Origin: Candidatus Lindowbacteria bacterium RIFCSPLOWO2_12_FULL_62_27
GTDB taxonomy: Bacteria > Lindowbacteria > 2-12-FULL-62-27
NCBI GenBank assembly: GCA_001784175.1
Contig: MFPR01000006.1
Coordinates: 124,001 to 188,000, forward strand
Length of the DNA stretch: 64,000 nucleotides
Direction of reading: 5' to 3'
The notes below the pieces were generated by a model. The model ran no database searches. It was not told where the DNA came from and worked only from the letters and a program-made list of their open reading frames with translations. Position 1 is the stretch's first letter. The number at the start of each line of letters is the position of its first letter. Both the position numbers and the translations under genes were made by a program. Below are positions 29,629 through 30,145 of this stretch, one piece after another.

Positions 29629-29711
29629 AAAAACGAAACGGCCTCGATTTCTCGGGGCCGTTTGTGTCAAGCCGCGCACTGGTTCAATCAACCTATGAAC
29701 CACGAGCTGCC
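29629..29711 (-). ncRNA. Predicted small RNA B, complementary to the anticodon arm of tRNA-like gene B
   Basis: Lies between a near-consensus promoter and a terminator (AAACGGCCCCGA-GAAA-TCGAGGCCGTTT-CGTTTTT); carries GGCAGCTCGTGG and GCGGCTTGACA, complementary to the minus-strand RNA from 29785-29807. Confidence 0.65.
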
Positions 29712-29717
29712 ACAGAA

Positions 29718-29746
29718 ACTATAGTGTATTTTCCCCGCTTTGTCAA
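29718..29746 (-). promoter_or_regulatory. sigma70 promoter for small RNA B
   Basis: TTGACA-17 bp-TATAGT on the minus strand. Confidence 0.75.
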
Positions 29747-29755
29747 ATGAAAACG

Positions 29756-29823
29756 TGGAGCCGGCGGGAATTGAACCCGCACGGGCGGCTTGACAGGCAG
29801 CCCGTGGCTTCCGGCCCGGCCCC
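29756..29823 (-). ncRNA. tRNA-like gene B: Ala-type acceptor (G3:U70, A73), Asp anticodon loop (CU-GUC-AA), shrunken D arm
   Basis: GGGGCCG GGCCGGAAGCC ACGGGCTGC CTGTCAA GCCGCCCGT GCGGG TTCAATT CCCGC CGGCTCC A; 7-bp acceptor stem and 5-bp T arm; no full CCA encoded. Confidence 0.7.
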
Positions 29824-29904
29824 ACGCCGTCAACGTACCATAAAATCGCGTTGGAAGAACTTAACAACTTACGGTCTGAGCATGATCACTCCTGTCTTCC
29901 CTTT

Positions 29905-29991
29905 AAAAAAGAAAGACCCGGATTTCTCCGGGCCTTTTCCTCTCGACCATCCGTGTGTAAAGGATACACACACTTCACGTCCCTCAAACGC
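29905..29991 (-). ncRNA. Predicted small RNA A, complementary to the anticodon and D arms of tRNA-like gene A
   Basis: Starts with CGTTTGAGGGACGT (14-nt perfect complement); then TGTGTATCCTTTACACACGG (imperfect complement of the D arm); ends in GGCCCGGA-GAAA-TCCGGGTC-TTTCTTTTTT. Confidence 0.65.
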
Positions 29992-29995
29992 CTAC

Positions 29996-30024
29996 AATTT
30001 ACCGAAATCCCGGCCTTCTGTCAA
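29996..30024 (-). promoter_or_regulatory. sigma70 promoter for small RNA A
   Basis: TTGACA-17 bp-TAAATT on the minus strand. Confidence 0.7.
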
Positions 30025-30030
30025 GAGTAG

Positions 30031-30101
30031 CTGGCCCGCCCGGATTCGAACCGGGATCTCACGTTTGAGGGACGTCTGTGTTTCCCTTACACCACGGGCC
30101 A
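30031..30101 (-). tRNA. Atypical tRNA / tRNA-like gene A, anticodon CUC (Glu), with C33 and a G27:G43 mismatch
   Basis: TGGCCCG TG GTGT AAGGGAA ACAC A GACGT CCCTCAA ACGTG AGAT CCCGG TTCGAAT CCGGG CGGGCCA G gives a complete cloverleaf; no CCA encoded. Confidence 0.75.
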
Positions 30102-30145
30102 ACATCGAACGCAGGCTGTCTGCGCCGAATTGGGTTGTCAATCAG

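Follow-up and report, generated by a model that had tools for sequence, protein, structure and literature searches.

Tandem cassettes of a tRNA-like gene and a predicted cognate antisense small RNA in a Lindowbacteria genome

The genome of Candidatus Lindowbacteria bacterium RIFCSPLOWO2_12_FULL_62_27 (G000; 61% G+C, 94% complete) contains a compact cassette in which a tRNA-like gene is followed, on the same strand, by the gene of a predicted small RNA (sRNA) that is antisense to it. The cassette occurs twice in tandem (A and B) within a 64,000-nucleotide (nt) stretch of contig C6 (G000:C6:124001-188000), which we call the window and whose positions are used throughout. From a comparison of four genomes of the phylum (G000 to G003, of which G001 is 88% and G002 91% complete and G003 represents another genus) and from surveys of metagenome and viral contigs, we assembled five cassettes from three organisms (A, B, B2, B3 and M150) that share one common layout. 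In each, the sRNA is specific for its own tRNA-like partner, and the paired segments of the two RNAs have co-evolved. On the evidence of their sequences, the cassettes point to an undescribed RNA-against-RNA control or addiction module. Full-text literature searches (main texts, without supplements) found no described system with this layout, in agreement with the first-pass annotation of the window, which had proposed two modules of this kind and knew of no precedent.

All recognisable elements of the stretch 29615-30146 lie on the minus strand, and plus-strand features bound it on both sides: a terminator that closes the upstream unit (29581-29608, plus strand) and a giant gene of 8965 aa (30146-57043, plus strand) whose product has a signal peptide, Kelch repeats and a beta-helix. 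The giant gene diverges from cassette A, and 44 nt separate its ATG from the 5′ end of tRNA-like A. Along the minus strand the order is tRNA-like A, promoter, sRNA A, a repeat resembling repetitive extragenic palindromic (REP) sequences, an extended −10 element, tRNA-like B, promoter and sRNA B; each element of the tandem layout was recovered where the first-pass annotation had placed it. A sigma-70 scan of 29300-30400 returned exactly two sites, both on the minus strand (shuffled sequences gave 0.4 ± 0.7). They coincide with the sRNA promoters that had been suggested 6–9 nt after the tRNA-like genes: the promoter of sRNA A (29996-30024, minus strand; 10 of 12 consensus positions) begins 6 nt downstream of tRNA-like A, and that of sRNA B (29718-29746, minus strand; 11 of 12) begins 9 nt downstream of tRNA-like B, each with a 17-bp spacer. 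A relaxed scan of 29560-30200 detected no comparable sigma-70-like promoter on the plus strand. The tRNA-like genes themselves have weaker sites, as had also been claimed. The candidate upstream of A (30113-30141, minus strand) combines a consensus −35 and a 17-bp spacer with a poor −10, scores 8.5 in the relaxed scan, was missed by the stricter one and overlaps the start region of the giant gene. Between the end of the extended −10 of B (29832-29840, minus strand) and the first nucleotide of the RNA there are 8 nt, and this block is kept upstream of B2 and B3. The same asymmetry, a consensus promoter for the sRNA and a weak promoter or extended −10 for the tRNA-like gene, is found in all five cassettes, all of which also retain the sRNA promoter hexamers and their 16–17-bp spacing around spacer sequences that differ.

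The predicted sRNA A (about 85 nt; 29905-29990, minus strand) ends in a terminator hairpin (29937-29912) followed by a U tract, and its fold has a z-score of −4.4. sRNA B (about 84 nt; 29629-29712, minus strand) carries a segment X′ (29711-29700), an internal hairpin containing a segment T′ (29688-29681), a segment Y′ (29675-29665) and a U-tract terminator. Both terminators had been expected from the first reading: the hairpin of A is called by the scan, and that of B (29663-29636) has 12-nt arms and is followed by a T run. Three pairs of the terminator stem show compensatory change. An 8-nt loop motif shared by the terminators occurs 236 times in G000, and only three of these occurrences stand in a hairpin with a T-rich tail, namely those of A, B and B2. 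The 18-nt terminator core of sRNA A is also present in 39 viral contigs, and in the 7 of these 39 that were matched by a core offset by one base it is an ordinary post-gene terminator; because the same hairpin core is common as a terminator on phage contigs, the shared loop motif is not diagnostic. Searches of the sRNA units against Rfam 15 at E ≤ 10 yielded only sub-threshold matches at chance level, and inspection by eye found no conserved tag frame or mRNA-like part in them. Two side observations concern the terminator of sRNA A. Its stem has the same sequence as the T stem of tRNA-like A, and 14 nt in the spacer of the sRNA A promoter (30004-30017) are 86% complementary to its 3′ half (29913-29926). 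A terminator with 3 differences from that of sRNA A over 35 positions (29905-29939) stands between unrelated flanks on short contigs from another organism of the same samples (run X5, record 11; run X7, record 16), and these contigs may represent a further A-type cassette.

tRNA-like A (30031-30101, minus strand) folds into a full cloverleaf with the anticodon CUC (Glu). ARAGORN reports a tRNA-Glu(CUC) at 30030-30101 on the minus strand, and the score against the Rfam tRNA family RF00005 is 52.1 bits (gathering threshold, 29), so that the tRNA-like identity proposed for it is borne out. When compared with the 79 tRNA genes of G000, its acceptor pairs U1-A72, G2-C71 and G3-C70 and its G73 are the first three pairs and the discriminator of the host tRNA-Gln. 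By sequence, A looks chimeric, with a tRNA-Gln-type acceptor and a Glu anticodon. The U1-A72 pair of tRNA-Gln is recognised by GatCAB. A profile match to GatB (578 bits) is present in G000, and no glutaminyl-tRNA synthetase (GlnRS) scores above the cut-off in this 94% complete genome (best match 79.6 bits against a cut-off of 425.8). Given this combination and the GatCAB rule, tRNA-like A is a candidate for amidation once charged with Glu, and it would then carry Gln to Glu codons.

tRNA-like B (29756-29823, minus strand) departs further from a standard tRNA. Its acceptor stem is 7 bp long and carries G3:U70 and A73, the D arm is reduced to a mini arm of 3 bp, the anticodon arm (anticodon GUC, Asp) consists of 8 bp and one mismatch, and the T arm is canonical; the variable region is absent, and the GG of the D loop is kept in the B types (B, B2, B3 and M150). 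ARAGORN makes no tRNA call here and the Rfam tRNA score (31.4 bits) lies narrowly above the threshold of 29; the tRNA-like label given in the first-pass annotation thus survives for B, but not as that of a canonical tRNA. A permissive search aligned B to both ends of the transfer-messenger RNA (tmRNA) model RF00023 with 36.3 bits, 7 nt taking the place of 308 model positions. This score is below the family threshold of 47, and B lacks the pseudoknots and the tag frame of a tmRNA. Judged by these matches, B is a tRNA-like domain (TLD) with a reduced D arm, similar to the TLD of tmRNA and distinct from a canonical tRNA, and it is unlikely to act as a standard decoder. G3:U70 together with A73, the sequence signature of an alanine acceptor, is found in B, B2, B3 and M150 (the pattern that retrieved M150 fixed U70, not G3), and the B types are candidates for charging with alanine. 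The acceptor of B differs from that of the host tRNA-Ala by one base pair, and its loop and flanks are identical to the host tRNA-Asp over 13 nt. The anticodon in the 7-nt loop is GUC in B, B2 and B3 and GCG (Arg) in M150, so the B types also look chimeric in sequence, with an alanine-type acceptor joined to an Asp or Arg anticodon loop. Across the tRNA-likes, 90.8% of the cells of the acceptor and T stems are paired and two pairs show compensatory change.

The complementarity between sRNA and tRNA-like RNA was reproduced as first described: 14 of 14 nt are perfectly complementary between the 5′ end of sRNA A (29977-29990) and the anticodon arm of A (30062-30075), and a gapless helix listing gives 11 nt perfect plus 12 nt with one G·U for B. 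Each sRNA had been said to pair only with the anticodon arm of its own partner. The cognate specificity holds, whereas the restriction to that arm does not, because sRNA A continues (29976-29955) into a 22-nt antisense helix with the D arm of A that contains one G·U and three mismatches, and sRNA B sets 8 nt against the T loop of B. The target segments in tRNA-like B are X (29807-29796), Y (29795-29785) and T (29777-29770), all on the minus strand. In every B-type sRNA, X′ is complementary to the 5′ strand of the anticodon arm, T′ to the T loop and the 5′ side of the T stem, and Y′ to the anticodon loop and 3′ strand; together they cover tRNA-like positions 17–55. The segments follow the order of an ordinary antisense RNA in A and are permuted in the B types, with X′-T′-Y′ in the sRNA against X-Y-T in the target. 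The longest perfect cognate runs in the five cassettes are 14, 11, 11, 12 and 14 nt, compared with a non-cognate maximum of 9 nt overall and of 7 nt within the window. Dinucleotide shuffles of the sRNA body matched the duplex energy in 0 of 1,000 cases for A and in 17 of 1,000 for B. Other roles for the sRNAs were considered and rejected. If they targeted host tRNAs, with the mimic as a sponge, matches to host tRNAs would be expected, yet only sRNA B has one, of 10 nt to tRNA-Asp by eye, and A, B2 and B3 have none. A coding piece of a two-piece tmRNA does not fit B, B2 and B3, through which no conserved resume or tag frame runs (by eye). G003 contains nothing equivalent to the 15-nt, 80% repeat by which sRNA A might mimic the beginning of the giant gene.

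Comparison of B with its paralogue B2, which lies 99 kb away on the same contig (G000:C6:252630-252834; BLAST match C6:252629-252886, 72% identical), reveals the co-evolution of the two RNAs. The two copies agree in the acceptor and the T arm as well as in the promoter hexamers and the terminator, and the anticodon arm together with X′ and Y′ is almost wholly rewritten; paired arm segments that are the most diverged parts are the pattern expected of a specificity determinant. All 31 intermolecular pairs are nevertheless kept (62 of 62 cells are standard pairs), and 11 of them have changed on both sides (7 in X:X′, 3 in Y:Y′ and 1 in T:T′). In slid controls, with the 3′ partners moved by 1–3 columns, 24–42% of cells were paired and 0–2 double changes were counted. 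B3 and M150 have their own arm sequences and matching sRNAs, and in B3 the loop itself has changed and the sRNA has followed. The first-pass annotation had proposed a search for covariation between anticodon arm and sRNA in homologues, which these double changes and the loop change in B3 now supply, and had named a one-off inverted duplication as what would speak against its reading, an explanation that covariation across copies removes. The substitutions also bear on whether RNA or DNA is under selection. Internal non-Watson-Crick positions of the helices comprise 5 G·U, 0 A·C and 5 others. A G·U pair between minus-strand RNAs corresponds to A·C on the plus strand and is a mismatch in DNA, which favours pairing of minus-strand RNAs over DNA repeats; transitions within DNA repeats should yield G·U and A·C equally, so that the occurrence of G·U without A·C leans to RNA. 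The retention of promoter and terminator in all five cassettes while the intervening sequence diverges leans the same way.

The remaining cassettes came from two directions. B3, a B-type orthologue in the other genus of the phylum (G003, locus L024, also L127), was found with the region and B2 as queries. A covariance model built from eight mini tRNA-likes, in whose alignment the conserved columns are partly set by the search pattern in five rows, scored B, B2 and B3 at 71–75 bits across the four phylum genomes, followed by ordinary tRNAs at 39 bits or less, and gave no B-type match in G001 or G002. The metagenome and viral surveys were exact-pattern scans. Among 24 metagenome loci, 3 belonged to this genome or a near-identical strain, 1 was a new full cassette (locus L150, our M150), 3 were mini tRNA-likes in which no partner was seen (L157, L162 and L168; the contig of L157 ends 69 nt downstream) and 17 were tmRNA 3′ ends or other RNAs. 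M150 lies on an unrelated, less G+C-rich contig and adjoins a broken integrase (tyrosine recombinase) gene. Scanning viral contigs with the tRNA-like pattern gave 3 loci, comprising 1 partner-less mini tRNA-like (L173) and 2 other tRNA-like or tmRNA 3′ ends, and the B-type sRNA pattern had no matches in viral contigs. A generic terminator pattern matched at least 118 loci in genome contigs, nearly all of them ordinary, and among the matches listed only L127 has a T loop and promoter upstream. Contigs from four DNA runs either were identical to the window or came from the B2 paralogue, and they contained no variants or strand-changing joints, although contigs would not reveal a minority orientation. 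The open reading frames (ORFs) beside B2 are toxin–antitoxin-like by eye. As for the partner-less mini tRNA-likes, they have a 3-bp D arm, a long central arm, mostly G3:U70 and an encoded CCA; the gene next downstream of L162 is a tRNA whose anticodon is ACU, and L173 lies near the end of its viral contig.

The surroundings of the cassettes are rich in repeated sequence. The 25-nt REP-like repeat (29854-29878, minus strand) lies between the cassettes and abuts the promoter of tRNA-like B. It has 21 copies in G000, for example at C43:154888 (plus strand) and 155890 (minus strand), and is also present in G001 to G003; it may be a mobile REP or a common regulatory site. The two inverted copies on C43 flank a RAYT-like (IS200-type) gene. 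Other copies occur singly, both 50–100 nt upstream of paralogues of the giant gene (C24 and G002:C40) and immediately ahead of tRNA-likes B and B2. The 5′ end of the giant gene, with the signal peptide and first Kelch unit, recurs as truncated copies upstream of the cassettes at 28391-28894 and at about 29383-29547 (both plus strand), with a gene for a 23S-rRNA-IVP or Avd-like four-helix bundle (28891-29253) between them, and a further truncated copy lies beside B2 at about 252.9 kb of C6. These copies suggest that duplications or insertions have occurred repeatedly where the giant gene begins. Its reading frame is open for 133 codons upstream of the likely ATG (29747-30145, plus strand), antisense through both cassettes, for which we estimate a chance of about 2% from base composition; the corresponding region of G003 has an ATG in frame immediately past tRNA-like B3. 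Because a signal peptide directly follows the ATG at 30146, the upstream extension is probably untranslated. The giant gene is given here as context, with a possible functional link to the cassettes. Elsewhere in the window, a second giant ORF (5-22063, plus strand; more than 7352 aa) is open at the window start, and a normal tmRNA gene (57175-57534) directly follows the 8965-aa gene. On another contig of the genome (G000:C27:1563-5297), 28 tRNA genes are packed into less than 4 kb, and several of them have an unusual length or encode the CCA. They form an array that is separate from the scattered tRNA set and looks like a mobile or phage-type array.

How might such a cassette work? Our leading interpretation, which we hold tentatively and put a little below an even chance, is that the cognate antisense RNA neutralises an aminoacylatable tRNA mimic in the manner of a type I or type VIII toxin–antitoxin system; here we infer that the RNAs are transcribed, which of them is the effector, that the mimic is charged and harmful, and what becomes of the duplex. 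Each cassette would produce two separate minus-strand RNAs. The first would be a stable and probably aminoacylatable tRNA mimic of chimeric identity, expressed from a weak promoter; the second would be the sRNA of about 85 nt, expressed in excess from a near-consensus promoter, with nearly its whole body antisense to the central part of the mimic. There is no terminator between the tRNA-like and sRNA genes, and read-through precursors would therefore carry both. Pairing would probably start between the anticodon loop and the single-stranded Y′ just upstream of the terminator, or at the 5′ end of the sRNA, and would then open the anticodon arm and the T loop, so that the mimic could neither adopt an L-shaped fold nor be charged or enter the ribosome. 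Duplexes of 14–26 bp may in addition serve as substrates of a double-strand RNase. Should the labile antisense RNA fall in abundance, the stable mimic would be freed and could cause mis-decoding or, as a look-alike of the tmRNA TLD, block ribosome rescue; for the B types, a TLD-like action on stalled ribosomes is an alternative to decoding suggested by analogy. A more specific version, which we regard as somewhat unlikely, is an all-RNA addiction or defence cassette in which the aminoacylatable chimeric tRNA mimic is the toxin, the short-lived antisense RNA is the antidote and a fast co-evolving address, which the anticodon arm has in common with the sRNA, permits several orthogonal copies in one genome. 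The released mimic would make decoding faulty or obstruct ribosome rescue. The B types would be charged with Ala and yet display an Asp or Arg anticodon loop, and A joins an acceptor of Gln type to a Glu anticodon in an organism that depends on GatCAB. The orthogonal copies, the fast-evolving address, the broken integrase beside M150, the REP elements and the ORFs beside B2 fit toxin–antitoxin-like behaviour.

Several observations weigh against neutralisation of a harmful mimic by its antisense RNA. In a functional decoder one expects U33, an anticodon stem of 5 bp, a D stem of 4 bp and also a variable region, and neither RNA conforms: A has C33 in place of U33 and a G·G at 27:43, at the top of the anticodon stem, and the anticodon arm of 8 bp plus mismatch and the reduced D arm of the B types make ordinary decoding doubtful. 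B2 has a G·A in its acceptor stem and folds no better than shuffled sequences (z = 0.23). Given the permuted order of the segments and linkers of 5–13 nt, the three B-type helices could not coexist in one 1:1 complex, and the B types would need stepwise binding or two sRNA molecules per target. In the duplex-energy matrix the cognate sRNA is best in only three of five rows, and sRNA B2 is 0.6–1.0 kcal/mol better for B3 and M150, on a measure that cannot represent split helices. The cassette is rare, being present in two of the four phylum genomes, in one new contig among the 24 metagenome matches and in none of the viral contigs, and the mini tRNA-likes L162, L168 and L173 have no partner sRNA within 600 nt. 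The complementarity seen in the DNA of M150 and B3 reaches into the −10 box or beyond it, to positions ahead of where the RNA is predicted to begin; selection on RNA does not require this, and it points towards a role of the DNA itself. Finally, REP, cassette and giant gene follow one another in the same order in G000 (A) and G003 (B3), that is, in two genera, which hints at a role in cis.

These points lead to alternatives in which the same anatomy has another purpose. The tRNA-like RNA could have a harmless job that the antisense RNA tunes, for instance as a TLD-only mini-tmRNA that rescues stalled ribosomes without tagging, as a decoy for a tRNA-targeting enzyme or as a conditional mis-decoder. 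The evidence for pairing applies to this reading equally, B aligns end to end with the tRNA-like domain of tmRNA at 36.3 bits, G3:U70 and A73 are shared with tmRNA and tRNA-Ala, and the partner-less mini tRNA-likes with encoded CCA in metagenome and viral contigs indicate that the RNA can exist without an antidote. We consider a regulated helper unlikely all the same: a dedicated, fast co-evolving and strongly promoted antisense RNA in every copy is more typical of neutralisation, three orthogonal copies in one genome are as found in paralogous toxin–antitoxin loci, and by eye the sRNAs have no mRNA-like part or conserved tag frame. Improbable, too, is that the minus-strand RNAs regulate the giant gene in cis by transcriptional interference or duplex formation. 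In this reading the giant-gene mRNA would have to begin within the cassettes or farther out, and the minus-strand RNAs would then be antisense to its leader; the inverted repeats could alternatively form a long hairpin in that leader. The plus-strand terminator at 29581-29608, which closes the upstream unit, the lack of a sigma-70-like promoter on the plus strand in 29560-30200, the short distance of 44 nt between tRNA-like A and the ATG and the shared gene order in G000 and G003 agree with such a role. On the plus strand, however, five G·U pairs become A·C mismatches, B and B2 have no intact gene start beside them, M150 adjoins a broken integrase, and the giant-gene paralogues at G000:C24 and G002:C40 have the REP repeat without a cassette. 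Regulation in cis also leaves the conserved acceptor and T arms and G3:U70 unexplained.

Two further possibilities place the complementarity in DNA. A recombinase could invert a segment of 71–107 bp so that the promoter then drives the giant gene, a form of phase variation that we think quite unlikely. The repeats do bracket the promoter in all cassettes; the promoter of A, once its 71-bp segment was flipped, would start about 83 nt upstream of the ATG of a giant gene that has no visible promoter; the repeat of A consists of short palindromic arms around an asymmetric core of 6–7 nt; M150 sits next to a tyrosine recombinase gene; and recombining repeats stay identical, which also gives co-variation. 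But a spacing of 71–107 bp between sites is very short for inversion, the repeat pairs of the B types are interleaved and do not make up one inverted site, and the repeats differ among cassettes, which leaves no common site for one recombinase. G·U-type mismatches are tolerated and A·C are not, B and B2 would face nothing useful, the conserved tRNA features speak against it, the 7 neighbouring proteins scanned, covering part of the window, include no recombinase, and a single orientation appears in all assemblies seen (L159 and the contigs of four runs), although contigs drop minority forms. Highly improbable, in our judgement, is that the cassettes are relics of inverted and tandem duplications of tRNA fragments at an insertion hot-spot, such as old attachment sites. 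The truncated giant-gene copies and REP elements of the region, the broken integrase beside M150 and an sRNA body that reads as a circularly permuted antisense copy of tRNA-like positions 17–55 would suit such an origin, which fails to account for 11 double compensatory changes without a broken pair between paralogues, for promoters and terminators kept in five of five cassettes and for retention of the cassette across two genera.

Antisense neutralisation of a tRNA mimic would have partial parallels among known systems. In the type I loci tisB/istR-1 and zorO/orzO, a separately encoded sRNA with about 15–25 nt of cognate complementarity is made from a strong promoter and its target from a weak one, and paralogous pairs do not cross-react. 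The cassettes resemble these loci in their short, cognate-specific complementarity, in paralogues that are predicted not to cross-react and in the strong sRNA and weak target promoters, but the type I target is the mRNA of a small toxic peptide and the target here is a tRNA-like fold of 68–71 nt. Lists of ORFs of at least 60 aa contain only chance frames across the tRNA-likes, with very small ORFs outside this screen. As in type VIII systems (SdsR/RyeA), in which an RNA toxin is neutralised by an antisense RNA (PMC8610362), both partners would be RNA, their genes are linked and the antisense RNA is complementary to its target RNA. SdsR and RyeA are encoded on opposite strands of one locus, where complementarity comes for free, whereas the genes here are in tandem on the same strand and complementarity is kept by co-evolution; the SdsR/RyeA toxin is an mRNA-targeting sRNA, whereas the putative toxin here is a tRNA mimic whose toxicity is predicted. 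Irregular tRNAs with G3:U70 and non-Ala anticodons (allo-tRNAs) can be alanylated in Escherichia coli and occur near toxin–antitoxin loci and transposon genes, and some variants are lethal there (Mukai et al. 2017, PMC5389517; review PMC7609411). They share with the B types an alanine determinant on other anticodons, including GCG as in M150. Their 12-bp acceptor branch is split 8/4 or 9/3 and their variable arm is long, whereas the B types fit 7/5 (an eighth acceptor pair is possible in B by eye), their D arm is of the mini form, their anticodon arm is long and they lack a variable region. An antisense partner goes unmentioned in the main text of both papers, where the word ‘antisense’ has no occurrence (PMC5389517, PMC7609411).

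The B types also share G3:U70, A73, a reduced D region and a canonical T arm with the TLD of tmRNA, but they have no pseudoknot and no tag frame and fall below the threshold of that family. A TLD-only tmRNA, to which the B types can be likened, exists in jakobid mitochondria, and we know of no tmRNA with an antisense partner. In fimS-type switches and Bacteroides invertons, inverted repeats flank a promoter; here, too, repeats flank a strong promoter beside a large surface-protein gene, but the segment is far shorter, the repeats are interleaved, one repeat lies in a conserved tRNA-like gene and no second orientation was seen. The 3′ external transcribed spacer of leuZ (3′ETS-leuZ), part of a tRNA transcript, sponges sRNAs, and the cis-encoded CopA/CopT pair, an antisense pair of the kissing or four-way-junction kind, controls a plasmid replication mRNA. 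With 3′ETS-leuZ the cassettes have in common that a tRNA-linked RNA pairs with an sRNA, although there the sponge is the spacer and not the tRNA body. As with CopA/CopT, hairpin-to-hairpin pairing can pass through a junction intermediate, but CopA and CopT are cis-encoded.

Under the rival readings, the locus would show switching of the 27-kb surface-protein gene. If the pairing is functional, the cassettes would, to our knowledge, contain the first bacterial sRNA dedicated to a tRNA-shaped RNA and the first tRNA mimic under antisense control. In that case, RNAs that corrupt translation or block ribosome rescue would join the types of toxin, and the cassettes would offer a handle on why irregular tRNAs of alanine identity with foreign anticodons persist near mobile and toxin–antitoxin genes. 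They would also constitute a natural set of orthogonal, reprogrammable RNA–RNA addresses, in which 11 of 31 pairs have been rewritten and none broken.

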